Part shown: positions 521 to 27,319 of the stretch, piece by piece
Layout of the letters: the number at the start of each line of letters is the position of its first letter
How positions within the stretch are numbered: the first letter of the stretch is position 1
Virus record (IMG/VR): IMGVR_UViG_3300031992_000039
Coordinates: 47,328-111,327 of that record
From: a virus
Lineage: Duplodnaviria; Caudoviricetes
DNA: 64,000 bases
Direction: 5' to 3' (one strand)
Made by a program: the position numbers and the translations under genes
The notes under the pieces: generated by a model
The model's database searches: none
The model's input: the letters and a program-made list of their open reading frames with translations, nothing else
What the model was told of the DNA's origin: nothing

Positions 521-614
521 TGGCGGAAGTGGCAGGGTTCGAACCTGCAAAGTGGTGACGTCAAACCACAGGGATTTAGAATCCCCCGCCTTTAACCTAT
601 TTGGCTACACTTCC
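521..614 (-). tRNA. tRNA with CUA anticodon (amber suppressor), type II Ser-like body
   Basis: GGAAGTG-TA-GCC AAATAGGTTAAA GGC-G-GGGGA TT CTA AA TCCCT-GTGGT TTGACGTC ACCAC TTT-GCAGG TTCGAAC CCTGC-CACTTCC-G-CCA; anticodon at 579-577; long variable arm, G73, encoded CCA. Confidence 0.9.
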
Positions 615-2741: not shown

Positions 2742-3215
2742 TTAACCTTTCGGTGTAATCGCTACATTGAACGTGCGGTTCAGAATTGGAACGGCATCTA
2801 CAATTCTAAACTCATACTTTTTATTATCAAACGGAATCTGGGTTTCGTTGATAAACACATTAAATAGATTATCATTAGGCCACTCTATATAAAGTGAGAA
2901 CATATATTCTATTCCGCTAGGAGTTTGTGCCTTACTTTGAAATCCATAATATGTATATTCACGATCTGGTCTTAACGCAGGATTATCAACACTAATCGGT
3001 ACACCATCTTTCATTGCTACAAATGCAGTATCTCCACTGCTTATAGGTATCAATTCACCCTCGGTGTCAAAATTGCCAACTGTGATATTGATCACATTAG
3101 ATTCAAGACCACCGGACGGCTTCGTATCCATCCCATCAAGCAAACTTTTTAAAACCGCAGGATTTGTATTCTCAGGGCTCTTCATTACATATTCAATAAC
3201 TTTATCTACGCTCAA
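2742..3215 (-). CDS. hypothetical protein with N-terminal YVMxTPxNTNPAVL-type motif
   Basis: VIEYVMKSPENTNPAVLKSLLD N-terminus; coupled to the endolysin (TTGA overlap). Confidence 0.7.
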   Translation of the reverse strand: MSVDKVIEYVMKSPENTNPAVLKSLLDGMDTKPSGGLESNVINITVGNFDTEGELIPISSGDTAFVAMKDGVPISVDNPALRPDREYTYYGFQSKAQTPSGIEYMFSLYIEWPNDNLFNVFINETQIPFDNKKYEFRIVDAVPILNRTFNVAITPKG

Positions 3216-4147
3216 AGTCCAATGACCTCCTTTAAATATTTCATACTACTATATCCATTTCCATCGGCAAGTACAGCCCAACCATTTACAATCGCGCCAA
3301 CCTCTACAATAGTACCTTTCTTAATCTTTCCACAAATATCATATTTAGTAGAAACGCCATTCCTTATATTTAAATTTCCCGTCGCTACATAACTCTTAGG
3401 CTTCAGCGCGACAAAATGGAAATATTTATTTTTTACATTAGAGGTATAAGCGTACCCATCTATAGTTATAATTTTATACCAACCGTCAGGATAAATTTCT
3501 AAAACCTTAACTTGCTCACCCTTCTTAATTTCTCCTACGACTTGGCTATTTAAATTGGCTTCTGAACGAATCCTCATCTTTTGTTTGGCATATGCCGTAC
3601 CAATTACCTTTCGTTCCTCAGCTGTAATCTCTCCATCATTCAGTACAATTGCTGTATGGCCAGTTGTACAAGTAACTAAAATATCACCTTTCATAAGATA
3701 TTTAGATGTATCAGTAATTGCTTTATCAGTTATAATATCGAACTCACCCGTTGCACGTAATATGCTAGCCTCATTTCCAGTATAAAAATCACCTACAAAA
3801 ATTCCCGCATAGGCGCAACAGAGCCTTACAAGCGCGGAACAGTCTACTTCGACTGGCTCTGTAATAGAACCGGGATCATAGTTTCCACCATTCTTTTTCT
3901 TACACCAATTATATGCAGTGTATCTCTGGTCTTTATCATACCCGATATTATCATTTTCGCAGGCCCGGCGCATTGCATAAGCTAATTTCTCTCTAATATC
4001 TTCGCTTTTCGCGCGAATGATATTCCATCCCTTCTTATTAGGATACCAATCTTCTATGCAGACCTCGAATCCATCTTGATCGCCTGCTTGACCGCCGCGG
4101 CCCTTTCCATTTTCATCGCGTTTCGCGGAACCAATTTTAACCTTCAT
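3212..4147 (-). CDS. endolysin: NlpC/P60-like cysteine peptidase plus two SH3b domains
   Basis: VDCSALV...GDIL...GHTAIV catalytic Cys/His; MRIRSEA...GW and LNIRNG...GW SH3b repeats; next to holin. Confidence 0.85.
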   Translation of the reverse strand: MKVKIGSAKRDENGKGRGGQAGDQDGFEVCIEDWYPNKKGWNIIRAKSEDIREKLAYAMRRACENDNIGYDKDQRYTAYNWCKKKNGGNYDPGSITEPVEVDCSALVRLCCAYAGIFVGDFYTGNEASILRATGEFDIITDKAITDTSKYLMKGDILVTCTTGHTAIVLNDGEITAEERKVIGTAYAKQKMRIRSEANLNSQVVGEIKKGEQVKVLEIYPDGWYKIITIDGYAYTSNVKNKYFHFVALKPKSYVATGNLNIRNGVSTKYDICGKIKKGTIVEVGAIVNGWAVLADGNGYSSMKYLKEVIGL

Positions 4148-4162
4148 TTATTTCACCTCAAT

Positions 4163-4555
4163 TCAAATCTTATTTTTATTTACTTCGGCTTCTATGCATT
4201 CCTCAATATATTTAGTCAAGTCGCCATAAATGCTTTCTAGATACTCGCGCGCATCATCTGATAAGATAGCTAAAATAGCTTCATAAGTACGCTTAAAAGC
4301 TTCTTTTTGAGCTTCCCCATCAAAAATATTTTCTCCTTTAAGTGCATCTACATATGTTTGATTTGTTGCAATAACACAATTACAAATCGTATCTGTTAAC
4401 AAACTTATATACTTATTTGCTAACTCATTATCTGATCGTGTCTTAATGTTTTCCACTTTCGCTCGAATAACCTTAATCAGATAAACCGTAAGTAAGCTTA
4501 AAAGAGGCACGATAAATATAGTGAAGATTTCATTTAAAATTTTTATCCAATCCAT
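4163..4555 (-). CDS. putative holin (LL-H-like)
   Basis: Single N-terminal TM helix, soluble helical C-terminus, upstream of endolysin. Confidence 0.65.
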   Translation of the reverse strand: MDWIKILNEIFTIFIVPLLSLLTVYLIKVIRAKVENIKTRSDNELANKYISLLTDTICNCVIATNQTYVDALKGENIFDGEAQKEAFKRTYEAILAILSDDAREYLESIYGDLTKYIEECIEAEVNKNKI

Positions 4556-4557
4556 TC

Positions 4558-4866
4558 TTAACCCTCTGCATCCTCTAAATTATTGGTATTCTCATATTCA
4601 AAAGGAACACCATCACTATTAATGCCATATTTATTACGACTATTCTTTAATCCCATCTGATATAATAAATAACTTAAAAGCGAGGCTATAACGGTACTTA
4701 CATTAACAACCGCCAGTGTTGGCTCAGGCATCTCCGAACTTGTTTCAATAGCAAGTCTACAGAGAGTATAATACTCTATTCCACACCAAATACCATAAAC
4801 CGCGAAAATGGCGGCAATTAAGGAACAAAATAACTTCGACCATTCAATTTTTTTCTTCTTTTTCAT
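4558..4866 (-). CDS. two-TM membrane protein of the lysis cassette
   Basis: Basic N-terminus and two hydrophobic helices. Confidence 0.6.
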   Translation of the reverse strand: MKKKKKIEWSKLFCSLIAAIFAVYGIWCGIEYYTLCRLAIETSSEMPEPTLAVVNVSTVIASLLSYLLYQMGLKNSRNKYGINSDGVPFEYENTNNLEDAEG

Positions 4867-4933
4867 AGTCTACCTCCTTATACTCCTATAAATAAGTAAA
4901 ATAAATAATTTATCTCTCTATAGTTCTGAAAAC

Positions 4934-4962
4934 TTGAATTTAGAATAAAAAAGGTATATAAT
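4934..4962 (+). promoter_or_regulatory. sigmaA-type promoter
   Basis: TTGAAT-N17-TATAAT. Confidence 0.65.
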
Positions 4963-4998
4963 TAAAAAGAAAAAAGATATTTAAAAGGGGTTGATGTT

Positions 4999-5361
4999 GT
5001 GTACAAAGAAGATTTGATGGATGCGATAGTTCATGTTACCATTCAGGATCTATTTGTGTTATCAAAAGATGGAAAAATTATAAAACTTTCAAATTTTTCT
5101 TTTAAAAATAAAAGCCACTTAGCTATATTATCTATCTCGGCTCTTATGCGAAATATATTTAATTTTGATATAGAAATTGAAAGTGATTTTTTCTCTTATT
5201 GGTTTTATAATTTGAAGCATAAGTATAAAAAGTTTTGTAAGCGCGTACCAAAAGTGGGCGATGGAATAAATGTAGATTTACTTATAAATAATATAGAAAA
5301 TTTAAATAACCTTCCTTCCATTTTTTCAGAAATTTATGAAAAGTATTATAAAGGAGAATAA
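4999..5361 (+). CDS. hypothetical protein
   Basis: 120 aa ORF after promoter, abuts rnhA. Confidence 0.55.
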   Translation: MYKEDLMDAIVHVTIQDLFVLSKDGKIIKLSNFSFKNKSHLAILSISALMRNIFNFDIEIESDFFSYWFYNLKHKYKKFCKRVPKVGDGINVDLLINNIENLNNLPSIFSEIYEKYYKGE

Positions 5362-5362
5362 G

Positions 5363-5809
5363 ATGGTAATCTATACAGATGGAGCCACCTCCAATAATGG
5401 ATATGATGGCGCGCGAGGTGGCTGGGCGTATATAGTTCTTGAAGGAGATAAAATTATTAAAGAAGAGAGCGGTTATGTGCCCGAGGCTACTAATAATAAA
5501 TGCGAACTAATTGCGCTTATAAATGCATGTAAGGCAATTTATAACATTTGGGGAGAACATATAATTTATAGCGATAGCGCATATTGTATTAGATGTTGGA
5601 AGGAAAAATGGTATGAAAGATGGGAGAGAAATGGCTGGAAGACTTCTAATAAAACCCCTGTTGCAAATAAAGAGCTCTGGCGCGAATTAATCCCATTTTT
5701 TAGAAATTCTCTTTTAAAATTTGAAAAAGTAAAAGGACATTCCGGAGATAAATGGAATGAATATGTAGATAAATTGGCCGTAAAAGCTAAAGGAGTTTTA
5801 AATGGTTAA
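5363..5809 (+). CDS. rnhA: ribonuclease HI
   Basis: IYTDGA, TNNKCEL, SDSAY, VKGHSG...NEYVDKLA; start moved to ATG 5363 after AAGGAG. Confidence 0.93.
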   Translation: MVIYTDGATSNNGYDGARGGWAYIVLEGDKIIKEESGYVPEATNNKCELIALINACKAIYNIWGEHIIYSDSAYCIRCWKEKWYERWERNGWKTSNKTPVANKELWRELIPFFRNSLLKFEKVKGHSGDKWNEYVDKLAVKAKGVLNG

Positions 5810-6782
5810 TCTTATAATTCCTGTGTACAAGGCGCGGGAGACCTTGCCGCGAGCATTAGATTCTCTTGTCGCGCAAACAAAAAAAATGTTTATTGTTACA
5901 ATAGTTCAGGATTGTGATGGAGAAGATTATAAGAAATTAATAGAAGAATATAGACGACGAGGTTTAAAGATTCGTCATTTAATTACTCCAGAAAATCTTG
6001 GCCCAGGTGGCGCACGGCAGTATGGGATAGACTCTGATGATATGTGCGACTACTTTATGTTTTTAGATGCGGATGATATGTTATATCCTCGCGCGATTGA
6101 TGCCCTTTACCATGAAGCTAAATTACACAATGCTGATGTTATATCTTCTAGCTTTATGGCTGAGGATGAACACACTACTATAAATTTTCCTGTTGAAGAT
6201 ACTCCTGTTACATGGACGCATGGGAAAATTTATCGAGCGAAATATTTAAAAGATAATAATATAAGATTTTTAAAAAATCTTCGACTAAACGAGGATTCTT
6301 ATTTTAACCTTGTAGCTATAAATTGTACAAAAAATAAGTTTAAACTACGAGAGTATACTTATTTATGGAGAGAAAATAAAAATTCCTTAACTAGAAAAGA
6401 AGATAGAGTATCTTTTTTAGAAAAAAGTTGGAGCCAATATGTTTATTCTCAAGTTCAAGGATTGTTGGACATACTTAAATTAAAGGGCGATCTAACTCCC
6501 TCACTTATCGCCGCGACTTTAAATAATATTTATTCTCAGATGATGGAGGCTATATATTATAAGATTCCCATAGAAAGCGTGAAACCAGTATGCAGTCAGT
6601 TGGGAGAGAATAAAGTAATATTGGATTTAATAGATACTGAAGAGTTTTGGAGGACAATTTATAATGTTGTAAAACCTTCTTTACTAACGAATAATACCCT
6701 TATATTTTTTAAAATGCGTTTTTGCGATTGGCTTAATGAATATATATTAGGAGAAGATGGAAATGAAGTTATTTATAGTTAA
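5802..6782 (+). CDS. glycosyltransferase family 2
   Basis: IIPVY, VQD, NLGPGGAR, FLDADD (DxD), NED motifs. Confidence 0.88.
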   Translation: MVNLIIPVYKARETLPRALDSLVAQTKKMFIVTIVQDCDGEDYKKLIEEYRRRGLKIRHLITPENLGPGGARQYGIDSDDMCDYFMFLDADDMLYPRAIDALYHEAKLHNADVISSSFMAEDEHTTINFPVEDTPVTWTHGKIYRAKYLKDNNIRFLKNLRLNEDSYFNLVAINCTKNKFKLREYTYLWRENKNSLTRKEDRVSFLEKSWSQYVYSQVQGLLDILKLKGDLTPSLIAATLNNIYSQMMEAIYYKIPIESVKPVCSQLGENKVILDLIDTEEFWRTIYNVVKPSLLTNNTLIFFKMRFCDWLNEYILGEDGNEVIYS

Positions 6783-7278
6783 CGGCGCGCCGGGCGCAGG
6801 GAAAACGACCTTTGAAAATATGGTGCAAGATGTATTTTTAGAGGAATACCCTGATTCAAAATATTGCTATATTTTTTCCACGATTGATTTTATAAAAGAT
6901 ATCGCTTATAAATGTGGATGGGATGGTACAAAGACAGGTAAAAATCGAAAATTTTTATCTGATTTAAAGGATCTTTTAACTGAATGGGATGATGTTCCTT
7001 ATCAGCATATACTTACTCAAATTGAATACATACCATCATATTTAAAAGAAAAAGATATAATAGTTTTTATAGATAGTCGTGAACCACAAGAAATAGAGCG
7101 ATTTAAGCGCGAGTTAGATGCGAAGGCTCTACTTATTCGACGCGATGAAAATCAAACCGAAATCACAAATCACGCAGATAGAAATGTGGAAAATTGTAAA
7201 TATGACTATATAATTGAAAATAATGGAAGTCTTGTAGATTTATACGCGCGCGCACGAGAATTTTTAAAAGAGATATAA
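6757..7278 (+). CDS. deoxynucleoside monophosphate kinase-like P-loop protein
   Basis: GAPGAGKTT; IDSREPQE; DYIIENNGS. Confidence 0.75.
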   Translation: MEMKLFIVNGAPGAGKTTFENMVQDVFLEEYPDSKYCYIFSTIDFIKDIAYKCGWDGTKTGKNRKFLSDLKDLLTEWDDVPYQHILTQIEYIPSYLKEKDIIVFIDSREPQEIERFKRELDAKALLIRRDENQTEITNHADRNVENCKYDYIIENNGSLVDLYARAREFLKEI

Positions 7279-7284
7279 ATAAAA

Positions 7285-7316
7285 CCCAGTAGAGCGTCTT
7301 CTACTGGGCCTTTTTT
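7285..7316. terminator. bidirectional intrinsic terminator
   Basis: CCCAGTAGA...TCTACTGGG between convergent genes, flanked by A and T runs. Confidence 0.7.
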
Positions 7317-7749
7317 AATCTTCAACAAGATCTTGATAGGAAATCGTATCAATTTCCCATTTACAAATCTCTTTATATAATAAAGAAGCGTAGCTATTTC
7401 CGTTATATTTATTTGTGTAAAGTTCGTAAGTTAAATCCGCCGTTTTTCGTTGATATAAAGGAATTTTTTTATCTTTTTGATATTTATAATAAATATCTTT
7501 AAGTATATTTCTACACTGCTGTTTTGTAAATTCCTCTCCTGTTTCTACTTTTAATAATAGCCTATCAAGAATAGTTTTTATTTCTTCTATGTCTTGAGTT
7601 TGTTGGCTATTTTGTTCATAAAGGTCTTTCGTATTTTTAAGAACTATATTCTTAATAAAATTGCGTCCGCCCTTTGTGCATAAAGTGATTAAACTAATAA
7701 CGGAAAGAATACATCCTATAATAGCAGCTATATTTTTTATAACTTCCAT
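7315..7749 (-). CDS. membrane-anchored coiled-coil protein (possible holin-like)
   Basis: N-terminal TM, coiled coil, Y...GNS C-terminal motif. Confidence 0.55.
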   Translation of the reverse strand: MEVIKNIAAIIGCILSVISLITLCTKGGRNFIKNIVLKNTKDLYEQNSQQTQDIEEIKTILDRLLLKVETGEEFTKQQCRNILKDIYYKYQKDKKIPLYQRKTADLTYELYTNKYNGNSYASLLYKEICKWEIDTISYQDLVED

Positions 7750-7804
7750 AGAAAATCCTCCTTATCCGACTTCTCCCAATATAGAAGTAGATTTCTTATG
7801 GTTG

Positions 7805-8203
7805 CTATCTATCTTTTTGATGTGTTCGCCACACTTCATCATTATGAAATTTTGAAAGAGCAAGGAATTTTTTAGAAGTTATTTCTTTAAAAGAGGATAA
7901 GTTATCTATCTCCCAATATGGGATACAGTATAAAGCAATGTTGTGCGCGAGACAGTATGAAATTTTTTGACGATCGCGCTCCTTTGCTTTTAGGAAATCG
8001 GAGCGTTTTTTATAAAAAAATTTATTGAATTCGTAGTGGTGAGGCCCATTTATCTCTAGACATGTATTGCGCGAAGGGATATAAAAATCATAGCGATATA
8101 AGCCATTTTTTAAATCTCTAAAAGTTTTTTCCTGAACAAAAGATAAGTCCTCCTGACGAAGAATTTTATATATCTTCTGTTCAAAAGAACTCATTTTACT
8201 CAT
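7805..8203 (-). CDS. PD-(D/E)XK (Vsr/DUF559-like) endonuclease
   Basis: SSFEQKI...QEKTF...RYDFYIP...EINGPHHY; ends in TAG. Confidence 0.75.
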   Translation of the reverse strand: MSKMSSFEQKIYKILRQEDLSFVQEKTFRDLKNGLYRYDFYIPSRNTCLEINGPHHYEFNKFFYKKRSDFLKAKERDRQKISYCLAHNIALYCIPYWEIDNLSSFKEITSKKFLALSKFHNDEVWRTHQKDR

Positions 8204-8205
8204 AT

Positions 8206-9312
8206 TTAATTTTCTCCAAAAATCCTGTACCAATCAGTGTCTCGTGCAGTCAAATCTGGACGCCAATTTTTAAATTTCGGATGGCGAATACCCTTTGTTT
8301 CTCCAAAAACTTGCATTCCGGTTATCTCAGCCACTCTTCCCTTATAATCCCTCCAATTAGAAAGGACTTCTTCTGTAAGTCCACTTAATGAGCCAATCAC
8401 AACAAGTTTATCATCCTTTTTCGCACCTATAACCAAACTTCCAGCCCAATCATTCCAATAAGCCTTAGTAACTGGTTCGATAGACATACCATCACTATAT
8501 TCTTTATAGAGTTCTCCTTCTAACTTTTCACCTGTTCGTATATTTTCCCAATACTTCCAAGTTAGGATCTCTTTTCCTCCATATAAGCGTGTAGGTGGAT
8601 TCGCATCAAGTATAACTACATCAAGAGTCTCTTGAAGCTCTTTTTTAATTTTTATACTGACTTTGGCCGGAGTTCTTTTTTGGTATACAATAGCATCCTT
8701 TCTCATTATCACTACCCCTTCCTTACCTTCAGATAGATAAGTTTGAATATTTTCCCAAAGTTCTTCACCCTGATAATATTCGGCATATTGTATATAACTA
8801 GAACCATATTTTTTACTTATTTCTTTTAGAATGTGTACCCTATCCTTAAATTTTGTATAAAGATAATTTTCTCCACTATATGCCATTACATCAAAAATAT
8901 AAAAGTTTAATGGAGTCTTTTCTTGACGAAGGATAGCTTTATCTTTTAGACATCCTAAAATACTCGTAACTTTATTACTACCCTCATTATTTGGTAAATA
9001 ACACTCACTTAACAAACAAGTGCCATTGGGCAGATCTTTTAACCAATCTGTTAATTGCGGAACCCATTCAATTTTATTGACCACTTCCCCGTGTACATTT
9101 CGTGATCTAGCTATCATGAAACAATTACCATCTTCATCTTTAATAATTCTTTGATAATAACCGTCTACTTTAAGTGCACCAATATAGTCTAGGCTAAAAA
9201 TTGCATTTTTAACTATTTCATGCCTTTGTTGCTGTGAGGTAGATGTCGTAAATGACCAATATTTCATTGGTTCTATATTTATCCAATCAATATTATTTAT
9301 ATATCCTTTCAT
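8206..9312 (-). CDS. ATP-dependent DNA ligase
   Basis: KVDG motif I, FDVM, EGVVIM, KIK, RHPKF...RPD. Confidence 0.88.
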   Translation of the reverse strand: MKGYINNIDWINIEPMKYWSFTTSTSQQQRHEIVKNAIFSLDYIGALKVDGYYQRIIKDEDGNCFMIARSRNVHGEVVNKIEWVPQLTDWLKDLPNGTCLLSECYLPNNEGSNKVTSILGCLKDKAILRQEKTPLNFYIFDVMAYSGENYLYTKFKDRVHILKEISKKYGSSYIQYAEYYQGEELWENIQTYLSEGKEGVVIMRKDAIVYQKRTPAKVSIKIKKELQETLDVVILDANPPTRLYGGKEILTWKYWENIRTGEKLEGELYKEYSDGMSIEPVTKAYWNDWAGSLVIGAKKDDKLVVIGSLSGLTEEVLSNWRDYKGRVAEITGMQVFGETKGIRHPKFKNWRPDLTARDTDWYRIFGEN

Positions 9313-9335
9313 ATTGCCTCCTTTTATATATAAAT

Positions 9336-9364
9336 ATTATATAACTTTTTTGATAAAATTTCAA
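9336..9364 (-). promoter_or_regulatory. sigmaA-type promoter of the ligase
   Basis: TTGAAA-N17-TATAAT. Confidence 0.7.
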
Positions 9365-9426
9365 AATTTCAACATTTTTATGTATAACTAGCTGGACAAA
9401 TTCACTTTAATATAGGAGGTGATAGA

Positions 9427-10263
9427 ATGGGTTACATTTATAAAATCACAAATTTAATTAATAATAAATTATATATAGGGAAAACAGTAACCTCTATAGC
9501 ACATCGTTGGGATCAACATAAATCTGCCGCCAGAAATGGAGTAGAATGGGCCTTATATAAAGCAATTAGAAAATATGGAGAGGATAATTTTAGTATAGAG
9601 ATGATCGAAGAAGTAGATGATAATAGTTTAAGTAATAGAGAAATATATTGGATTAATTATTATAATTCTTATAAAAATGGATATAATATGACATTAGGAG
9701 GAGATGGGAGAATAAATTTGAACCGTAATAAAATAATAGAATTATGGAATAATGGATGTTCAGCTCAAACTATTAGTAAAAATTTAAATTGTTGGGTAAG
9801 TACCGTTATAGATATTTTAAAAGAACAAAATATATATGATCCCGAAAGAATTAAAAAAGAAAGAATGATTAATACTGCCAATTCGCAATCACAACATAAA
9901 ATTATTCAATATAGTGAAAATGGGGAAATTATAAATATTTTTAATTCTTGTAAGGAGGCTGCGGAACATATAGGTGGGCTTTCAGACACAATACATGGTG
10001 GAATAACTACTAAAGGAAGTCGCTATGGTTATTATTGGGCGTATGAAGATGCTAAAGAACTACCTAATTTTAAACCAATTAAAAGATCTATTATAAGAGA
10101 AGTATATCAATATTCTTTAAATGAAGATTTTATAAATTGTTTTAATAGCGCAGCAGAAGCACAAAGAAAAACAAATATTAATAGCTCTTCAATTTTAAGA
10201 GTGTGTAAAGGACAACGAAAAACTGCTGGTGGATATAAATGGAGCTATGATTTAATAGAATAA
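9427..10263 (+). mobile_element. free-standing GIY-YIG homing endonuclease with NUMOD1-like C-terminal repeats
   Basis: GYIYKITN...LYIGKT...R...E...GYN; two QYS...F.S..EA repeats; TAGGYKW end. Confidence 0.88.
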
Positions 10264-10330
10264 AACCCTTCATATCTATACTCCTTCTATTTTATATATA
10301 GATTATACCATAGATTTAAAAGAAGTTCAA
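10259..10330 (-). pseudogene. vestigial ligase 5' end (promoter, RBS, MKGFI)
   Basis: TTGAAC-N17-TATAAT, AAGGAG, ATG AAG GGT TTT ATT, matching the ligase start MKGYI. Confidence 0.6.
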
Positions 10331-10404
10331 ATTTTTAAATATTAATTAACCTCAAGAGCTTCATCAGATAGAAGTGAGCGGTATTCTCTTTTTCTTTAAA
10401 AAAT

Positions 10405-10433
10405 TTGAAATCTATTTAAAAATATATTATAAT
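10405..10433 (+). promoter_or_regulatory. sigmaA-type promoter
   Basis: TTGAAA-N17-TATAAT. Confidence 0.7.
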
Positions 10434-10465
10434 ATAAATAGAAATAAAATAGGAGTTTTATATAA

Positions 10466-11488
10466 ATGAAGGACATTAATTATATAGTTGGATTTGTTTT
10501 AAGTGGAATTATAATACTTATAACTTTAATTGCCTATATATCTGAAAAAAGAAAATTTAAAAAACTTAATAAAGAAATAAAAGAAGAAAAAGAAAAAATT
10601 CAAGAAGATTGGCTTAAAGAAGCACAACAAAAATATCTTTTTGAAATTCAAGATAAAATAAATGAGTTAAACTCTATAGAAGAAAAAATAAAAGAAAAAG
10701 AAAACGAAATAATTAAAGTAGAAAAAGAGCTTTCCGAGAAGAAAAATTTTAATTCTTCCCTTTTAAAAATTCGAGAAGAAGAATTAAATAGATTAATTGA
10801 AGAGAAGCGTCAAAAGCGTGAGAGTGAACTTGAATTTGAAATTGAGGAATGGGCGCAATCTGCGCAAGAGGCCGCCACATATCAGCGCGACCAAATTTTT
10901 AAGCAATATCAAAAAGATATTGACGAACAATATGAAAAATTAAGAAATCTTTATCTTGAAATTAATGAATATAAAGAAAAGCGCGACGCTATGAATCAAG
11001 AAATTATGCGCGCTCGTGCAATCGAAGAAAAACAGGACTTTTATCGAATTCAAATTCCGGATGGATATCGTCATGATATAGAACTCTTAAATGAAATTCG
11101 TTCCCAATTTTCAAAAATTGAAATTCTTGATAAACTTATTTATGATAATTATATAAAAAAGCCAGTTGATGAAATGATAAAGAGAATTCTTGGCGGACGC
11201 GCTCCATCTGGTATATATAAAATAACCCGTTTGAAGACTGGGGAGGTTTATATAGGTAAGTCTACTGATGTAAAAACTAGAATTCAACAACATTGTAAAA
11301 CTTGCTATCATTGTGGTACAATAAGTCGTTCTACTCTTCACGATGTAATGGATAGAGATAAAATTTGGAATTTTACTTTTGAACTTTTAGAAGAAGTTCC
11401 AAAAGAAAAACTCGGAGAAAGGGAAAAATATTGGATTAATTTTTATGATTCTAAAAAATTTGGGCTTAATGAAAAAAATGGAGGATAA
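10466..11488 (+). CDS. membrane-anchored coiled-coil protein with C-terminal GIY-YIG nuclease
   Basis: N-terminal TM, long E/K-rich coil, SGIYKIT...YIGKS...R...EKYWI...GLN. Confidence 0.8.
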   Translation: MKDINYIVGFVLSGIIILITLIAYISEKRKFKKLNKEIKEEKEKIQEDWLKEAQQKYLFEIQDKINELNSIEEKIKEKENEIIKVEKELSEKKNFNSSLLKIREEELNRLIEEKRQKRESELEFEIEEWAQSAQEAATYQRDQIFKQYQKDIDEQYEKLRNLYLEINEYKEKRDAMNQEIMRARAIEEKQDFYRIQIPDGYRHDIELLNEIRSQFSKIEILDKLIYDNYIKKPVDEMIKRILGGRAPSGIYKITRLKTGEVYIGKSTDVKTRIQQHCKTCYHCGTISRSTLHDVMDRDKIWNFTFELLEEVPKEKLGEREKYWINFYDSKKFGLNEKNGG

Positions 11489-12538
11489 ATGGAATTTTCA
11501 AAATTACAAGAAGAGGTATTGAGAGCGCCAGACGATAAAATTGTTGTGATGTCATGCGCGGCTTCGGGCAAAACGACTATTATGACAGAGAAAACTCGGC
11601 GTTTATTGCGCGCAGGTGTATCGCCTAAAGATATGGCAGTTATCACATTCACGACAATGGCTGCGACAGAATTGCGTCAACGACTCGGAGATGATTACAA
11701 AGATGGGCTATTTGTAGGTACAATCCACGCTCTTGCAAATTATTTTCTCTTATCCTCTGGAATAGATACAAAAGATCTTTTAGATGAAGAGAACTTTGAT
11801 AAACTTTTTGATAGAGTCGCGCACAATCCACGCTGTATAAAAAGTATAGATTACATAATTCTCGATGAGGCACAGGACACGGATAAGCTCCAATTTAAAT
11901 TTTTACTTGAAATGATAAACCCACGACACTTCTTTATAGTCGGTGATGTGCGCCAATCTATTTATAGATGGAGAGCGGCGCGCCCTGACCTTTTACTTGA
12001 AATAATGAAGAGATCGGATGTGCGAGTTTTTGATATGAATGAAAATTATCGAAATGGGTCTAATATTCTAATGTTTGCTAAAGGGCTTATAAGTCCTACT
12101 GGTCTTAATGATACATCAATCTCACGCAGTCCGCAAAAAGGGGAAGTTATACGAACCTCATACTCACCCACTCAAATTATAGAAATTTTACGAGAAAGCC
12201 CCGACCTCTATAAAGATTGGGCGATTCTAACTCGCACAAACAAAGAAATTTGGGATATATCTATAGTTTTGAAAAAGAACGGGATTCCTTTTGAAACTTT
12301 TAAACAAGGAGATCTTTCAAAAGATGAATTATTGGAGAAGATGGAAAAGAATACAGTTAAATTATTAACTGTTCATAGCGCGAAAGGGTTAGAGTGGAAG
12401 AATGTAATTGTTATTGGGATGAAGTATTATGATGATGAAGAGAGAAGTGTATGTTATGTAGCCGCGACAAGAGCAAAAGAACGACTTATATGGATGGGTT
12501 ATCCACCTAAAAGTAGAAAGAATAGGTATAGTTTTTAA
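11489..12538 (+). CDS. compact UvrD/Rep-like SF1 helicase
   Basis: AASGKT, TFT, DEAQD, GDVRQSIY, NYR, TVHSAKGLEW, YVAATRA. Confidence 0.9.
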   Translation: MEFSKLQEEVLRAPDDKIVVMSCAASGKTTIMTEKTRRLLRAGVSPKDMAVITFTTMAATELRQRLGDDYKDGLFVGTIHALANYFLLSSGIDTKDLLDEENFDKLFDRVAHNPRCIKSIDYIILDEAQDTDKLQFKFLLEMINPRHFFIVGDVRQSIYRWRAARPDLLLEIMKRSDVRVFDMNENYRNGSNILMFAKGLISPTGLNDTSISRSPQKGEVIRTSYSPTQIIEILRESPDLYKDWAILTRTNKEIWDISIVLKKNGIPFETFKQGDLSKDELLEKMEKNTVKLLTVHSAKGLEWKNVIVIGMKYYDDEERSVCYVAATRAKERLIWMGYPPKSRKNRYSF

Positions 12539-12543
12539 AATAA

Positions 12544-12569
12544 AAAAGAAAGGTTTGAACCTTTCTTTT
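12544..12569. terminator. bidirectional intrinsic terminator
   Basis: AAAAGAAAGGTT TG AACCTTTCTTTT between convergent genes. Confidence 0.7.
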
Positions 12570-12585
12570 ATTTTTAGATTTTATT

Positions 12586-12801
12586 TTACGCCTTAGCTGA
12601 TTCTTCTTGTTTGGACTGGTTAAATTTTTGAAAGATTGCTTTTATAATTGCGGGATTCACATTATTAGGTGTTTCAAGCACATAAGTAATTATCGCATCT
12701 TCTAATGAAAGAACTACTTCCGCTGCCGCTTCCTGCACCACTTCAGGCTCACTTTCGAGGCCTGGAGCATTGTCATCTATTTCAAATTCTCTTTCTTCCA
12801 T
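12586..12801 (-). CDS. small acidic protein carrying the YVxxTPxNxNPA motif
   Basis: IITYVLETPNNVNPAIIKAI; RBS GAGG upstream. Confidence 0.65.
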   Translation of the reverse strand: MEEREFEIDDNAPGLESEPEVVQEAAAEVVLSLEDAIITYVLETPNNVNPAIIKAIFQKFNQSKQEESAKA

Positions 12802-12876
12802 TTAATTTTCCTCCTATATAAAATTTTATTACTTTTTCTCTTCATTTCGGATGGGACATCGAGATTAATCAAAAGA

Positions 12877-14100
12877 TTAACCCAAACAGAAGCCGGGCAC
12901 AACACCGTTAGCATTGGAAGCATCGTCGCCGCCGCCGCTACCGTCACCGAAGACGATCCCGAAGCCGCTGGCACCAGTCTTCTCGTCGAAAAAGCCAGAT
13001 CGCAACCGCCAGAAAATTGGACTACTATCCAGCAAATTAGGTTTGCGTCTAATTCGAGTTGACGGGCTATACACTGGACCGGTAGATTCGTAGATGCCAA
13101 ATATCTCACGAGTTGACGGTATCCAAATAGTTTCCACAGACGACATCTCAGTGAATACTTCACCGGATGCAGTAAATCCGATGCTATGTTTCACAACGGG
13201 AGTGAGATTAGTTCGCACAACTTCAGGTAGCAGTGCTTTAATGGTTGTATCGAGGTATGTTTTCATTTCAGACGCAGGATAACCGCCTAAACAACCCGTA
13301 CCCGAAGTACCTGCTGAATACGCCGGATTCATTCGATGTGTAGTTGTAAGGGCCTGTTTCGCAAGGAATGAAAGCGGAACTACATCACCATTCTCTTTGA
13401 CATCCTTATCAATTCCGACAATTTCATATCTGATAGTACCTTCAGCACCCATGTCGATCGTTTTGTAGTCATGCAGGTGATACTTTGTCGCATAAGTGCC
13501 GTCCTGTGTCGCTGAAATTATCTGTTCCCAAGTATCTGTGATTTCTACTCCCGCGTCTTCACCGTAATGGATAATAGCGTTAGTGGCTCCCCAAGGAGCT
13601 CCCGCAACTGCACCACTTGCCCATGGGACATATATATCAGCTAATGCTGTAAGTCCTTGGAACGCTAGGTTAGAAATGAATGAAGGAGTTCCGCGGAATG
13701 TGACAGACGCGAGCGCTGTATCTCCGCTGAACGCCTTCTCCGAGATCTGGACACAATTAGCGGGAATAGTGAAGGAAGTAAGCGCGGTCAATCCTGCCAG
13801 ACCGCCTAACGCGATTCCATACAAGTTATCGCATTCTAGTTGAGTCATGTGAGACAACTCGAGTGTAGGAAGAACTAATCCGTTGATTCCGGTTCCGTAC
13901 GTACCAATGTACGCTGAATTGACAACAGCACCCTTAGTGATGTTACCGCTGGAATCCTTCTCAAGCGCAACAAATCCACGAACGGACGATGTATCGCCAC
14001 ACTCTTCTGGTAAATTATCTACTAAACTTTTTAAGACCGCATAGTTTGTATTATGAGGTGTATTCATTACATAATTTATAACTTCTTCTTTTGTACTCAC
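12877..14100 (-). CDS. adhesin-like protein: N-terminal YVMNTPHNTN motif, BspA-type LRRs, C-terminal DUF6273/C-type-lectin-like domain with DGR-type variable region
   Basis: LTSFTIPANCVQISEKAFSG LRRs, IYVPW...GAPWGA cap; WRLRS...F..V..DG...ASNANGVVPGFCL end. Confidence 0.8.
   Translation of the reverse strand: MSTKEEVINYVMNTPHNTNYAVLKSLVDNLPEECGDTSSVRGFVALEKDSSGNITKGAVVNSAYIGTYGTGINGLVLPTLELSHMTQLECDNLYGIALGGLAGLTALTSFTIPANCVQISEKAFSGDTALASVTFRGTPSFISNLAFQGLTALADIYVPWASGAVAGAPWGATNAIIHYGEDAGVEITDTWEQIISATQDGTYATKYHLHDYKTIDMGAEGTIRYEIVGIDKDVKENGDVVPLSFLAKQALTTTHRMNPAYSAGTSGTGCLGGYPASEMKTYLDTTIKALLPEVVRTNLTPVVKHSIGFTASGEVFTEMSSVETIWIPSTREIFGIYESTGPVYSPSTRIRRKPNLLDSSPIFWRLRSGFFDEKTGASGFGIVFGDGSGGGDDASNANGVVPGFCLG
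12880..13015 (-). other. candidate DGR variable region (VR)
   Basis: 18 of 28 consecutive codons end in C, in an AT-rich genome, between fixed W..RS, F, V, G, A, GV.PGFC positions; TAATCT repeated at and after the stop. Confidence 0.65.
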
Positions 14101-14169
14101 TTATTTTTCCTCCTAATTTAATCTATCTCATATATAAAAGTAGATTTCAAAGCCATTTACTCTATAAAT

Positions 14170-14198
14170 TTGAAATTTCCTTAAATTTATATTATAAT
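14170..14198 (+). promoter_or_regulatory. sigmaA-type promoter
   Basis: TTGAAA-N17-TATAAT. Confidence 0.7.
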
Positions 14199-14243
14199 AT
14201 ATATAGAATATAAAAGAATTATATTAAAAGGAAGTAAATACTA

Positions 14244-16088
14244 ATGAGTTATGGTATAGACGATATAAAATCGCTTTCATTTCGCGATGGTGTGCGCGAG
14301 CGCATACAGATGTATCTTGGAAGTGATGACCTTGAAGGAACATATCAGGCTTTTAAAGAAATTATAAATAATTCTACTGATGAAGCAATTGCGGGATTCG
14401 GTAAGAAAATTGAAATTTCAGTAGATGAAAAGGTAAATGATATAAAAATTCGTGATTATGGCCGTGGGGTTCCTTTTGGAATTAGAGAAGATGGAGAAAA
14501 TGTACTTGTATCAATCTATTCAAAATCCCACACAGGCGGAAAATTTGAGGAAGGCGCGTACAAGAACGCATCGGGTCTCAATGGTATAGGAGCTAAATGC
14601 GTATGTTTAAGCGCAAAAGAGTTCCAAGTTTTTTCTTTTAGAAGTGGGACTTTAGGATTTGCTTATTTTAAGAAAGGTGAACTTGTAGAATATAAAGAAG
14701 TGCCCACTAATGAGCCTAATGGTACGCTTATTCATTTTATACCTGATCCCGAAGTTTTTAAGACTGGAGAAATTGGATACTCGTATGAAAGAATTTGTAA
14801 TGACATAAAAAATATATCTTATTTATATAGCGGTATAACTTTTGAAATTACAAATGCTGTGACTAAAGAAGTAAAAACTTATTGTGCAAAAAATGGTATA
14901 GTAGATTATATACGAGATAATGTACCCAATCCTCTTCATAAGCATATTATAACCGAAGTAGTAGAAGATGAAACTGATCGTCTTGAAATTGCTTTTCAAT
15001 GGGGTAGTAAAAAAGAGGAGTCACGCGTATTCGTAAATGGACTTCTTTGCCCAGAAGGCGGCAGTCCTATAACTGGAGCAAAAACAGCAATAACTCGTAC
15101 ATTTAATTCACTCTCCAAACAAAACTTCGATGGCGATAGTATAAGAGAAAATTTATTTTATGTAATAAATTGCTCTGTTGCCCAGCCCAGTTTTGCAAAT
15201 CAAACAAAAACAAAAATTAATAATACAAATTTACGCACAATGGCGTCAAATGCTTTTTCAAATGCGTTAAAACAAATGAATTTAAAGTATAAAGATGAAT
15301 TCGATACTATTGTAGAATTACTAAAAAAGGTCGCTCGCGCAGAGGCCGCCGCAGAGAAGGCGCGTCAGCAAGTTTTGAACGCAACAAAAGAAATTGAGAA
15401 GAATCAGAAGAAGAAAGTTTTCGCATCAGATAAGTTGAAGGATGCAGAGTTTTTAGGTGAAGATTCTACTTTACTTCTTGTTGAGGGATTAAGTGCTGCC
15501 TCTTCAATGGCGCAGGCGCGCGATGAGAAAAAATATGGAATTCTCGCACTTCGTGGTAAGCCAATAAACGCTTTCTCAAATCCCGATGAGAAGATTTACG
15601 AAAATGAAGAAGTTAAATTGCTTTTGAGCGCGATGAACATCATACCGGGCAAATACAACGCATCTAAGTTGCGCTATGGAAAGATTGGCATAACCGTTGA
15701 TGCAGATGCGGACGGGTACTCAATCGGGCTTCTTATAATGTGTCTTTTGTATAAGTTCGCACCACAATTTATAGAAGAGGGACGCTTATGTTGGCTTAGA
15801 TCGCCGCTTTATATTGTTTCGTCTGGAAAGAAAGAATATTATTATTTTACAGATGAAGAATATAATAAGCGTACAGTAAAAGGCGTCACAACTCGCGCGA
15901 AGGGATTGGGCGCTTTGTCCGCGGACCAGGCTCGTCGTTCCATGTTTACAGAAGAATTCCAGCGTATGGATAAGCTTATGCCAGATGAAGAATCTTTGAA
16001 CTTATTGCTTGATTTAATGGGTAAGGATTCCGAGCCAAAGCATAACTTTATTTGGGATAATATAGATTTTTCGGAGATAAAGGAGTGA
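14244..16088 (+). CDS. gyrB: DNA gyrase / type IIA topoisomerase subunit B
   Basis: EIINNSTDE, DYGRGVP, HTGGKF, GLNGIG, VEGLSA, LRGKPIN, DADADG. Confidence 0.93.
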   Translation: MSYGIDDIKSLSFRDGVRERIQMYLGSDDLEGTYQAFKEIINNSTDEAIAGFGKKIEISVDEKVNDIKIRDYGRGVPFGIREDGENVLVSIYSKSHTGGKFEEGAYKNASGLNGIGAKCVCLSAKEFQVFSFRSGTLGFAYFKKGELVEYKEVPTNEPNGTLIHFIPDPEVFKTGEIGYSYERICNDIKNISYLYSGITFEITNAVTKEVKTYCAKNGIVDYIRDNVPNPLHKHIITEVVEDETDRLEIAFQWGSKKEESRVFVNGLLCPEGGSPITGAKTAITRTFNSLSKQNFDGDSIRENLFYVINCSVAQPSFANQTKTKINNTNLRTMASNAFSNALKQMNLKYKDEFDTIVELLKKVARAEAAAEKARQQVLNATKEIEKNQKKKVFASDKLKDAEFLGEDSTLLLVEGLSAASSMAQARDEKKYGILALRGKPINAFSNPDEKIYENEEVKLLLSAMNIIPGKYNASKLRYGKIGITVDADADGYSIGLLIMCLLYKFAPQFIEEGRLCWLRSPLYIVSSGKKEYYYFTDEEYNKRTVKGVTTRAKGLGALSADQARRSMFTEEFQRMDKLMPDEESLNLLLDLMGKDSEPKHNFIWDNIDFSEIKE

Positions 16089-16092
16089 AGAT

Positions 16093-16467
16093 ATGCAATT
16101 TATTCGATATGATCTGGATTATAATCCTAATCCTTTACACCCTCAAGAGGCAATTAAGGAATTAGGTTTTAAAGTAATTCATGGCGTACCCCAGTCTATA
16201 TATAGCTGTTGGTGGTTTTGCGTAGAAGATTATGATTTTAATATCGAAGAAAGGGCAAAAACTGATTATAGGTATAAATATGTCTCAGTAATGCTTCCTT
16301 ATTCATTAAAATATTGGCGTGATCATTGCTTTAATAATTGTGAATATTTTGAAAAATCTTTTAATGTACAAACCCAAACTCATAATTGGGAATGGTGTTG
16401 TTATGGAGGCGAGCGTTGTTTTAAAGAAGGAGATAAAAATGGAACAAAATTTAACACCGATAATTAA
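16093..16467 (+). CDS. hypothetical Cys/Trp-rich protein between the gyrase genes
   Basis: 124 aa, RBS AAGGAG, overlaps the gyrA start. Confidence 0.6.
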   Translation: MQFIRYDLDYNPNPLHPQEAIKELGFKVIHGVPQSIYSCWWFCVEDYDFNIEERAKTDYRYKYVSVMLPYSLKYWRDHCFNNCEYFEKSFNVQTQTHNWEWCCYGGERCFKEGDKNGTKFNTDN

Positions 16468-18778
16468 AGATAGCTTCCTTCAGTTTAGTGGCGCGGTTCT
16501 TCAAAGTCGTGCCCTTTCTGATGTGCGCGATAACTTTAAGCCGTCTGCGCGCCAGATCTTTTACTGTATGTATACGGATAAGTTTATCCATTCAAAACCG
16601 TTTCAGAAAACTCTAAAGTCGATTGGCTCTGCTTTCCGTATGTATATACACGGTGATGCAAGTGCCGAAGGCGTCATAATGCGCGCGGGACAGCCGTTTG
16701 CGATGAGATACCCGCTTGTAGAAGTAGAAGGTTCATATGGTACCCTTCTCTCAAGTGGAAGCTGGGCAGCACCCAGGTATACGGGAGCCCGTCTGAGTAA
16801 ACTTGCGTCATATATTTTTGCTGATTTGGATAAAGATGTAATAGATGAATGGCGCGACAACTATGATAATACTGAACAGTATCCGATGGTTTTGCCGTCA
16901 AAGGGTTTTTATAACCTTGTAAATGGTAATTTTGGCCTTGGCGTGGGCGCGAGCAGCTCAATTCCCCAATATAATCTGCGCGAACTCAATAACGTGCTTA
17001 TTACTCTTATTCAAAATCCTAACTGTACTTTTGATGAGATTTATTGTGAGCCTGATTTTGCAACAGGTGCGACCATAATAAATAAAAATGAAGTAAAAGA
17101 ATCTCACCGAAAGGGAAATGGATTTGCTTGTAAGATACGATCTACTGTAGAGTGGGAGCCTAAAGAGCGCTGTTTTATCGTTACTGAAATTCCTTATATG
17201 GTTTATACTGAAACAATTTGTAAGGAATTGGAAGAAATTATAACGGGCGAGGATAATCCCGGAATAGATAGGTTTAATGATTTAACTGGTGAAAAACCAA
17301 ATCTTAAAATTTATCTTTCAAAGAAAGCAAATCCCGATAAAGTTCTTAAATATCTTTATAAAAATACTTCTCTCCAATCCTATTATGGCATAAACTTTAC
17401 AATGCTTGATAATGGGCGCTACCCTCGCGTATTTGGGTGGAAGGAAATGCTTCAGGCTCATATAGATCATGAAAAGATTGTTTATCGTCGCGGCTTTGAG
17501 TTTGATTTGCGTAAGATACTCGCGCGCATCCATATAATTGAGGGCCTCTTAAAAGCATATGACGCAATTGACGATGTAATCCATACAATTAAATCTTCTA
17601 CTTCAACGGCGGATGCCTCACTTAGATTGCGCGAACTATTACAAATTGACGAAGCGCAATCAAAAGCAATTTTAGACTTAAAGCTTTCAAAACTTTCAAA
17701 ACTTGATATAACAAAACTAAAAGACGAAAAAATTTCGCTTGAAGTTGAAGGAATGAGAATAAATAAAATTCTTCATGATGAAACCCTTCTTAATAATGAA
17801 CTTATAAGTGGTTGGCGCAAAGTCGCGGATGAATTTGGCGATGAGCGGCGCACTAAAGTTATCCAACTTTCTGAAGGAGAAAACAACGAACCAATCGAAC
17901 AGAAACAGCTCTCAATCTCTTTTACAAATAAAGATTCTATATTTGTTTCGGAGACTTCAACTCTTTATGCTCAGCGGCGCAATGGTACCGGCGCGAAATT
18001 TAAACTCGATAAAGAAGAATATATTATAGATACCCTTATTGGTTCTAATACTGATACAATTCTTTTCTTTACTTCCCACGGAAACTTCTACCATTCCAAA
18101 CTTGGAGATTTTTCTATAGGAGAAAAGCAATATCTTTCAAATTTAAGTTTACTTCCTTACGAGCATATAGTCGCCGCGGCGGTCCTCACAAGTAACCATC
18201 CGCGTCATATAATCTTTATAACTAAAAATGGAATTCTAAAAAAGTCAGAGTTGTCTGAATATAACCTAAAGCGCAATACTGGTGCAACTGCGATAAACTT
18301 AGATAAGGGCGATCAAATCGTTTCTATAATGTTTGTAAATGAAGAACAGATTGGTATTGCAACTCGTGCCAGTCGTTTCATTCGAATTTCCACGAAGGAT
18401 ATTCGCGCAATTGGAAGGGTCGCACGCGGAGTGTGCGGGATAAAACTTAATGATGGAGATGAAGTAGTAAGCGCGAAAGTAATTTCGGCTTCAACGACTT
18501 CAATCGTTTCTATTTCTCTTGATGGTTATATTAAACAAACTCCTATTTCTGAGTTTAATCTAACTGGTCGTGCAACAAAAGGCTCAAAGATCCAATCTAC
18601 AAATTCTTTTTGTGATTTCTTACCTTTAACTTCCAACGATGATGTACTTGTTGTATCTTCAACTTCCCAGCTTAGACTACGCGCGAGTGATGTTCCAGTA
18701 TTATCTCGAGGCGCTCAAGGAGTAAAATCCATAAAACTTCTTGAAAATTCAAAAATTATAAAATTAACTCAGCTTTAA
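16439..18778 (+). CDS. gyrA: DNA gyrase subunit A
   Basis: RALSDVRDNFKP, HGDAS, AAPRYT catalytic Tyr, GyrA-box-like QRRNGTG, beta-pinwheel repeats; start at ATG 16439 after AAGGAG. Confidence 0.93.
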   Translation: MEQNLTPIIKDSFLQFSGAVLQSRALSDVRDNFKPSARQIFYCMYTDKFIHSKPFQKTLKSIGSAFRMYIHGDASAEGVIMRAGQPFAMRYPLVEVEGSYGTLLSSGSWAAPRYTGARLSKLASYIFADLDKDVIDEWRDNYDNTEQYPMVLPSKGFYNLVNGNFGLGVGASSSIPQYNLRELNNVLITLIQNPNCTFDEIYCEPDFATGATIINKNEVKESHRKGNGFACKIRSTVEWEPKERCFIVTEIPYMVYTETICKELEEIITGEDNPGIDRFNDLTGEKPNLKIYLSKKANPDKVLKYLYKNTSLQSYYGINFTMLDNGRYPRVFGWKEMLQAHIDHEKIVYRRGFEFDLRKILARIHIIEGLLKAYDAIDDVIHTIKSSTSTADASLRLRELLQIDEAQSKAILDLKLSKLSKLDITKLKDEKISLEVEGMRINKILHDETLLNNELISGWRKVADEFGDERRTKVIQLSEGENNEPIEQKQLSISFTNKDSIFVSETSTLYAQRRNGTGAKFKLDKEEYIIDTLIGSNTDTILFFTSHGNFYHSKLGDFSIGEKQYLSNLSLLPYEHIVAAAVLTSNHPRHIIFITKNGILKKSELSEYNLKRNTGATAINLDKGDQIVSIMFVNEEQIGIATRASRFIRISTKDIRAIGRVARGVCGIKLNDGDEVVSAKVISASTTSIVSISLDGYIKQTPISEFNLTGRATKGSKIQSTNSFCDFLPLTSNDDVLVVSSTSQLRLRASDVPVLSRGAQGVKSIKLLENSKIIKLTQL

Positions 18779-21167: not shown

Positions 21168-21197
21168 TAAAAAGAGGGTAGAAATACCCTCTTTTAA
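21168..21197 (+). terminator. intrinsic terminator
   Basis: AAAAGAGGGTA GAAA TACCCTCTTTT. Confidence 0.75.
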
Positions 21198-21198
21198 T

Positions 21199-21227
21199 TT
21201 GACTTTTTTTAAAAATTATAGTATAAT
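21199..21227 (+). promoter_or_regulatory. sigmaA-type promoter
   Basis: TTGACT-N17-TATAAT. Confidence 0.7.
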
Positions 21228-21259
21228 TTATATAGAGAAAATATAAAGGAGTGATATGA

Positions 21260-27118: not shown

Positions 27119-27319
27119 ATGGATAGATTATCTAAAATATTACAAATTTTAAATAAATATATGGAAGATTATCAAAAACAGTGGCCTATTGAGGCAGAAC
27201 ATGATATAATATGGTTCAATATAGATTATGAATTAGTCTCAGAAGAAGATATGGAAGTTCTAAAAGAATTGGGTGTATTTTTTGATGAGGATTGCGATTC
27301 ATTAGCCTTATTTACTTAA
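27119..27319 (+). CDS. small acidic hypothetical protein
   Basis: AEHDIIW...LKELGVFFD. Confidence 0.55.
   Translation: MDRLSKILQILNKYMEDYQKQWPIEAEHDIIWFNIDYELVSEEDMEVLKELGVFFDEDCDSLALFT

Follow-up and report, generated by a model that had tools for sequence, protein, structure and literature searches.

A short peptide shared by three phage genes

The DNA analysed here, a window of 64,000 nucleotides, corresponds to bases 47328-111327 of the 111,327-bp IMG/VR record IMGVR_UViG_3300031992_000039, a rumen virus of the Caudoviricetes with 127-bp direct terminal repeats on record. Three open reading frames (ORFs), at 2742-3215, 12877-14100 and 12586-12801, share a peptide of about 30 residues with the consensus IIxYVMxTPxNTNPAVLxSML, hereafter called the tag. 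All three lie on the minus strand, have an AGGAGG site at normal spacing and end with a TAA stop codon, and their products are mutually unrelated outside the tag. The original prediction, made from the letters of this DNA, had pointed to this shared peptide on otherwise unrelated minus-strand ORFs and had proposed that it docks interchangeable adhesins at a common site of the virion.

The sharing itself is confirmed by three approaches. When the whole window is scanned in six frames with a regular expression, the motif is found at three places, all of them in these ORFs. A hidden Markov model (HMM) of the three copies gives three matches at E ~1e-20 against the six-frame translated genome, the next one being at E 0.75. 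Finally, a profile made, to avoid circularity, from the tags of 200 foreign metagenomic proteins finds the same copies in the 111,327-bp genome, with 57.1, 55.4 and 28.7 bits (E 3e-16, 2e-16 and 5e-8, respectively), and its next match is at E 1.1. The presence of three copies is real and far beyond chance.

The first tagged gene (2742-3215, 157 aa) starts with a TTG codon at 3215 that overlaps the stop codon of the endolysin gene. Its tag covers residues 1-30 (3126-3215), and the remainder (residues ~40-157) is an orphan, no relatives being found when they were searched for. The second tagged gene (12877-14100, 407 aa) starts with a GTG codon at 14100 and encodes a tag (residues 1-32; 14005-14100) followed by a linker, a leucine-rich repeat (LRR) region and a DUF6273-like domain. 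These two tags are 80% identical at the DNA level over 61 nt. Both starts place the invariant Tyr of the tag at residue 9-10, in the register of the whole family (residue 8-10, see below), and are validated by it.

The two domains that the original prediction had assigned to the 407-aa protein are retained with some reservations. The BspA-type LRR region (residues ~96-175; 13576-13815) gives a weak match, as LRR_5 reaches 26.8 bits, below the Pfam cut-off of 27.7, while the BspA-like LRR chains 4gt6 and 4fs7 of the PDB are matched at E ~1e-4. The C-terminal domain (residues ~185-407; 12880-13548), announced as a lectin domain of the type diversified by diversity-generating retroelements (DGRs), appears DUF6273-like, that is C-type-lectin-like, from its language-model features (ESM Atlas feature score of 0.98 to three DUF6273 clusters), even though Pfam's own DUF6273 model does not reach E 0.1 on this protein. 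DUF6273 has a C-type-lectin-like fold and is read as a receptor binder often targeted by DGRs (PMC10743442; 10.1101/2024.10.15.618418). The DGR part of the claim holds for the domain family but not for this genome, where the reverse transcriptase family PF00078 gives 0 matches (the controls worked) and where a genome self-BLAST at word size 9 detects no template-like repeat involving 12877-13100. DUF6273-type DGR targets do persist in phages lacking DGRs (10.1101/2024.10.15.618418).

The third ORF (12586-12801, 71 aa) has an acidic leader, a degenerate tag and a short tail, and a search for its relatives found none. It had been described as little more than a tag behind an acidic leader, and both elements are indeed present; the tag (residues ~33-60; 12622-12705) is however internal, behind the 32-residue leader, carries substitutions at otherwise near-invariant positions and scores below the family minimum of 39.7 bits (the lowest of 200 members). 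A comparable case is known in Klebsiella phage KpV767, in which a truncated second receptor-binding protein (RBP) of 69 aa keeps only its 29-residue docking peptide and is read as a product of decay (PMC6872550). As the 71-aa ORF is degenerate, has no relatives and parallels this 69-aa protein, it is probably a decayed copy, a remnant being more likely than a regulator. Its proposed role as a filler or stoichiometry regulator is weakened accordingly, although conserved tag-only proteins do exist in relatives. Two copies of this genome are intact, one in the lysis operon (157 aa) and one in a slot between helicase and topoisomerase genes (407 aa).

The tag defines a large family of N-terminal modules

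A word-indexed search with an alignment of 11 sequences matched at least 436 proteins. When 1.84 billion cluster representatives were searched exhaustively with a profile, the family grew to 2,082 clusters at E<=1e-3, 303 of which are at E<=1e-10. The core pattern is present in 119 of the 120 top matches and, in 112 of these 119, the invariant Tyr stands at residue 8-10, indicating that the module begins at the initiator Met. The module spans residues 1-30 and is followed by a linker rich in Gly, Ser, Asp and Glu, then by sequence that cannot be aligned; many tags close, just ahead of the linker, with an acidic L-x-x-[IL]-[DE] stretch. Tags are about 50% identical across the family, with invariant Tyr, Pro, Asn and Asn residues. 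Their identity is not significantly higher within than between genomes (0.517 vs 0.490, p 0.19), and no homogenisation within genomes is seen.

For the commonest architecture, AlphaFold2 run on a 62-sequence alignment gives two helices, at residues 3-12 and 19-31, joined by a turn at the invariant TPxNTN, then a low-confidence linker (32-39) and a beta-sandwich with a predicted local distance difference test score (pLDDT) of about 90. Tandem double tags occur in some proteins, and residues 1-56 of one of them are modelled as four helices, again with a pLDDT of about 90. The tag is thereby predicted to be a helical hairpin, which the model packs confidently against a second hairpin.

The absence of a named family for this peptide, noticed from the start, holds in every collection searched: the tag has no name in Pfam, PHROGs or NCBIfam, a profile search of PDB sequences finds nothing up to E 10, and tblastn with the tag and with one tagged protein (P0080) gives no match in GenBank phages. 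Scanning 185,579 prokaryote genomes with the motif pattern yields 345 pattern matches, 0 of which could be confirmed.

A 1,555-aa protein with 10 apparent tag stretches (P0135) is a Gln-rich repeat protein and a false positive. The tag is not recognised as a cellulosome dockerin, with its paired Ca-binding repeats: neither single- nor double-tag proteins give a Pfam match (Dockerin_1) at E 0.1, tagged proteins lack a signal peptide, and no tag was confirmed in the bacterial genomes scanned with the pattern. As a side observation, several double-tag or tag-only proteins (P0128, P0130, P0132 and P0147) carry a repeated Val-Gly-Thr-Ala-x-Val-Gly at their C-terminal end.

The tag carries many unrelated cargo domains, which are also found behind other heads

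The sequences behind the tag fall into 44 BLAST clusters among 120 tails and, in a larger set of 188, into 65 clusters including 46 singletons. The fusion to diverse cargo that an HMM search was expected to reveal is in this way amply found. The tag is shown to be an N-terminal module in its own right, joined to many cargo domains that have no relation to one another, and its modularity is demonstrated.

In relatives, the cargo includes clear and long LRR_5 arrays, of up to ~590 aa. The C-terminal part of PF11133 (Phage_head_fibr) is also matched, with 29.0 bits in L047 and 22.7 bits in P0209 for a cut-off of 24.6, while none of the three window proteins matches this family. Fibre-type sequence motifs are recurrent in the relatives' cargo and are shared with proteins of the window's tail module (46888-48513 and 44363-45754). 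The commonest cargo fold, a beta-sandwich without significant structural neighbours, is uninformative, its best Foldseek matches being at E 0.04 in the PDB and at 1.6e-3 in BFVD, to an uncharacterised phage protein, with a best VIA Z of 4.2. Judged by its domains and motifs, the cargo is of the fibre or adhesin type.

The same cargo is found behind N-terminal heads other than the tag. In one locus (L005), a 524-aa LRR protein with another head is 71% identical over 477 residues to its tagged neighbour. Over 122 residues, the cargo of the tagged protein P0209 shares 84-98% identity with proteins that begin with another head and come from nine loci, and a third alternative head precedes cargo that is 33% identical over 150 residues. 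One alternative head matches the first ~36 positions of phrog_2012, a 'minor tail protein' (E 7e-6), and of phrog_5711, a 'head fiber protein' (E 1e-3). In the window itself, a 463-aa fibre protein of the tail module (44363-45754, minus strand) combines a different short N-terminal peptide and a Gly7 linker with a domain akin to tagged cargo (38% identity over 47 residues, E 0.003). Cargo shared with other heads fits what is predicted for a swappable adaptor. This head exchange is the strongest evidence for seeing the tag as one member of a set of interchangeable adaptors used by fibre-like proteins.

Altogether, at least four other short N-terminal heads with a Gly-rich linker were observed on the cargo families of the tag; one has the PHROG-named match given above and the rest are unnamed. 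They are encoded in L005 (1165-2739), L047 (7528-7998), L046 (3843-4238) and L008 (3526-4362 and 4346-4882), and at 44363-45754 of the window.

Most tagged genes lie in a conserved slot of one siphovirus family

The 157-aa gene is the last of the lysis operon. This operon is headed by two small ORFs with membrane segments (4163-4866, minus strand), holin-like by position and without a Pfam match, and the endolysin gene (3212-4147, minus strand), with ELLD and SH3 domains, is directly upstream of the tagged gene. The two other ORFs occupy a slot (12586-14100) bordered by a UvrD-like helicase gene (11489-12538) on one side and by GyrB-like and GyrA-like topoisomerase genes (14244-18778) on the other, all on the plus strand.

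The surroundings of the relatives' genes, taken from IMG/VR loci, show that tagged genes form same-strand arrays of 2-4. In at least six loci, the array lies between GyrB/GyrA-like genes and a UvrD-like helicase gene, i.e. in the slot occupied here. Other locations exist: in G001, tagged genes close the tail-fibre block, on the same strand as the tail-fibre genes, and in L012 a tagged gene is flanked by peptidoglycan-binding and holin-like ORFs. Complete genomes have 1-3 copies each. Distinct tag subtypes are repeatedly found together in the arrays of different contigs.

Two further observations concern these arrays. The first gene of several of them encodes a conserved tag-only protein of ~79-86 aa with a divergent tag subtype (L010, 2766-3005; L042, 3330-3566; L043, 6669-6926; L045, 7228-7473); its end runs into the start of the tagged gene that follows, suggesting translational coupling and a stoichiometric partner. 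In addition, two GIY-YIG endonuclease genes (9427-10263 and 10466-11488, plus strand) stand beside the helicase gene at the border of the slot, and relatives keep a copy there. These endonucleases may promote exchange at the tag-gene hot spot.

Eight large carrier contigs (G001-G008, 58-121 kb) were compared, and all eight share capsid, portal, tape-measure, Dit and Tal genes with this phage, their major capsid proteins being 65-84% identical to its own. The virion module of this phage, with Dit, Prophage_tail, portal and a 2,616-aa tape measure, is that of a siphovirus. So far, the tag has been found in a single family of siphoviruses only, with genomes of 100-120 kb recovered from rumen and gut metagenomes; their hosts are probably Gram-positive rumen bacteria. 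The tape-measure protein itself (52812-60662, minus strand) carries, close to its C-terminus, a peptidoglycan-binding domain (PG_binding_1), a possible sign of a host with a Gram-positive wall.

The tag as a proposed adaptor for accessory fibres

What could such a module do? We lean, though barely, towards the view that it is the N-terminal adaptor of a large family of accessory fibres or adhesins, in which packing of the hairpin holds exchangeable cargo on the particle. An amphipathic helix-turn-helix of ~30 residues would be tied, through a flexible linker of Gly, Ser and acidic residues, to a distal domain open to exchange, which could be an LRR array, a C-lectin-like DUF6273 domain, a domain resembling the phi29 head fibre or a small beta-sandwich. 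As the conserved hydrophobic face of a hairpin cannot be buried by that hairpin alone, it would be packed against a second helical element to form a small bundle. The second element could be another tag in cis, as double-tag proteins have, a tag borne by a co-expressed partner, or the surface of a conserved virion protein. Such packing would fix the cargo on the particle, and the cargo would in turn bind host or environmental surfaces. The pairing step is predicted from the double-tag model, while attachment to the virion is inferred from the type of cargo, the exchange of heads and the gene context; late expression and a binding function of the cargo are likewise deduced.

The original prediction is in this way partly supported, by the existence of a separate module, by its diverse fibre- or adhesin-type cargo and by head exchange, but several points weigh against docking on the virion. 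No tag-like hairpin is found in conserved virion proteins, all profile-profile probabilities being below 1%. As a single phage family shares its virion module in all eight carriers, presence/absence profiling cannot name a partner. Known receptor-binding domains are not matched significantly by the cargo folds. The tail module does not contain most of the tagged genes, two of the three studied here among them; they lie in the slot between replication genes. Finally, the four-helix packing of the double tag fits plain self-association equally well.

The evidence on expression timing is of the same mixed kind. A late promoter motif, YACTT, had been proposed, and TACTT-N0-3-TATA sites do lie upstream of the 407-aa gene (14131-14142, minus strand) and of the lysis operon (4887-4898), as well as of a gene for a 541-aa fibre (48533-48542) and of ORF 7315-7749 (7780-7789). 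The motif is nevertheless not significantly enriched in the window, with 10 sites vs 6.2 expected, a count reached by 13 of 100 shuffles. Sister phages G004 and G008 give another view, as they are heavily amber-recoded, mainly in virion genes: 13/19 virion vs 6/25 replication genes are recoded in G004 and 15/21 vs 8/27 in G008, with 90 and 108 in-frame TAG codons, respectively, in virion genes. In G004, the tagged gene has 2 TAG in 147 codons, a density near that of virion genes (90 per 6,283 aa) and above that of replication genes (28 per 8,334 aa). In G008, there is only 1 TAG in 269 codons of tagged genes, which makes the late-gene argument thin. The TAG content of tagged genes is weakly indicative, being compatible with late expression.

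The explanation that survives best besides a virion adaptor, even if we hold it for rather improbable, is that the tag serves purely for self-association. Cargo would then be di- or oligomerised via homo- or heterotypic four-helix bundles, giving multivalent binders that are not attached to the virion by the tag. The closed four-helix unit modelled for the double tag, the joint recurrence of distinct subtypes in arrays, the overlap of tag-only genes with the beginning of the tagged gene that follows, as might be expected of stoichiometric partners, and the failure to find a partner hairpin in virion proteins all speak for it. It leaves unexplained, however, why the same cargo occurs behind heads typical of named head or tail fibre proteins, and why the tag is apparently restricted to a single phage family, whose virion proteins are conserved. 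Oligomerisation and docking are not, moreover, mutually exclusive. A related possibility, to which we give a similarly small share of our confidence, is that tags pair with each other or with tag-only proteins to build mixed, multi-headed adhesin 'bouquets' from the cassette array, without each hairpin being docked on the virion. The tag subtype would set the pairing, and tag-only proteins would act as adaptors or caps. If true, this would be a combinatorial display hub without a described phage counterpart, and a 30-residue plug for phage engineering.

It is unlikely that tagged proteins are instead soluble factors freed at lysis, such as wall- or debris-binding subunits acting with the endolysin, or a surface coating, the tag mediating the complex. 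The position of the 157-aa gene, which overlaps the endolysin stop codon within the lysis operon, and that of the tagged gene of L012 beside peptidoglycan-binding and holin-like ORFs would suit such a role, for which a signal peptide is unnecessary. Most tagged genes do not, however, adjoin lysis genes, their cargo domains and motifs are common to fibre proteins of the tail module, and the endolysin has SH3 wall-binding domains of its own.

Still less probable is a capsid-targeting sequence that would load cargo into the prohead for ejection, and might be cleaved, as in the internal proteins of T4. T4 internal proteins do offer a parallel to a short, conserved peptide placed at the N-terminus of diverse small proteins from variable regions, and the acidic stretch that closes many tags would be in keeping with it. 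But LRR arrays, lectin-like and fibre-like domains and classic fibre motifs are not the cargo that this role would call for, a cleaved signal would not be expected to come with long, flexible Gly linkers or as tandem double tags, and the length of the tag is three times that of its T4 counterpart. Finally, it is hardly credible that the shared 5' end is kept only as a DNA homology patch for cassette swapping, the peptide itself being jobless: the DNA identity of the two intact copies and the recent exchange of near-identical cargo behind different heads would agree with it, but conservation acts at the protein level, on tags that are only half identical and yet keep their four invariant residues, the fold is confidently predicted, and tags are no more alike within than between genomes.

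Comparison with known docking systems

A conserved N-terminus combined with a swappable receptor-binding end is a textbook principle, and two kinds of systems come closest to the tag in function. In lactococcal P335-type phages (TP901-1 BppL/Tuc2009), the RBPs are proteins of ~160 aa whose conserved N-terminal helical stem plugs into a baseplate protein and whose C-terminal beta-sandwich head is exchangeable. Tagged proteins are likewise small, with a helical N-terminus and a swappable C-terminal domain, but there is no sequence match with BppL-type proteins, the genes are located elsewhere, and the copy number and cargo range of the tag are much larger. Pfam and PHROG scans detect no BppU-like partner in the tail module.

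The second kind is that of the 'anchor-branch' systems of Klebsiella and E. coli phages (KP32, K1-5 and G7C), in which conserved N-terminal docking peptides are borne by secondary RBPs (Latka et al. 2019, PMC6872550; PMC13352976). The peptide has 29 aa in the KP32 group, and the receiver in these systems is a T4gp10-like branching domain on a primary tail spike. The tag shares with these systems the short conserved N-terminal peptide present on otherwise unrelated RBPs, several per genome. Their genes are however in the tail module and their cargo consists of depolymerases, whereas tagged genes are mostly outside the tail module, and the tag family has tandem double tags, conserved tag-only proteins and probably Gram-positive hosts. 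General Pfam and PHROG scans of tail-module proteins reveal Dit, Prophage_tail and unnamed families only and no T4gp10-like receiver, no dedicated T4gp10 profile or comparison of structures having been run. As neither a T4gp10-like nor a BppU-like receiver was found and no sequence relation is shown, membership of the tag in KP32-type or BppL-type systems is not supported.

The head fibre gp8.5 of phi29 (PF11133, PDB 3QC7) has a likeness to some of the cargo, its C-terminal part being the one matched by the cargo of P0209 and by its module-swapped twin. It binds the capsid by an N-terminal base of ~110 residues, which tagged proteins lack. The tag can be aligned by hhalign to residues 211-226 of the gp8.5 stalk, one helix-turn-helix repeat, and the likeness is also seen by eye; the probability is 0.3%, and 3QC7 is not among the fold-search matches of the double tag. 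This resemblance is a lead only, with neither statistical nor structural support.

The 407-aa protein can also be compared with the DUF6273 or C-type-lectin-like DGR targets of gut phages, which include tentaclins and Mtd-like targets (PMC10743442; 10.1101/2024.10.15.618418). Its C-terminal domain groups with DUF6273 clusters, but its genome is devoid of a reverse transcriptase and of a template repeat. Tentaclins have an N-terminal lectin and a C-terminal Ig anchor, in place of which the 407-aa protein has the tag and LRRs.

What is new in the tag family is its scale, its brevity, its tandem and tag-only forms and its location outside tail genes. The tag marks thousands of unannotated genes of rumen and gut phages as probable surface-binding accessory proteins, and it marks a hot spot where binding domains are traded between phages. 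If docking proves true, host-range and adhesion repertoires could be read from metagenomes, and the tag would be a second, independent case of short-peptide docking, beyond Klebsiella and E. coli podophages, in siphoviruses of probably Gram-positive anaerobes. It would also provide a natural tag of 30 residues for hanging proteins on phage particles.

Other features of the genome

Although two of its sister phages are heavily recoded, none of the conserved genes of this phage contains an in-frame TAG, and TAG serves as the stop codon of only 4 of its 90 long ORFs. Recoding within the carrier family thus ranges from none to heavy. The genome nevertheless encodes, at 521-614 (minus strand), a tRNA of 94 nt that has a long variable arm and whose anticodon, CUA, reads amber codons.

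Two paralogous small proteins (45957-46349 and 43602-43880, minus strand) have the same N-terminal sequence and are each encoded after a fibre gene of the tail module; by their position, they look like fibre assembly chaperones.

Finally, an intergenic element of 45-70 nt, with 77-85% identity between copies, is repeated in both orientations at 14163-14234, 10277-10471, 943-983, 21194-21239 and 27316-27361, one copy standing between the 407-aa tagged gene and the divergently oriented GyrB-like gene. This repeat is probably a regulatory site.

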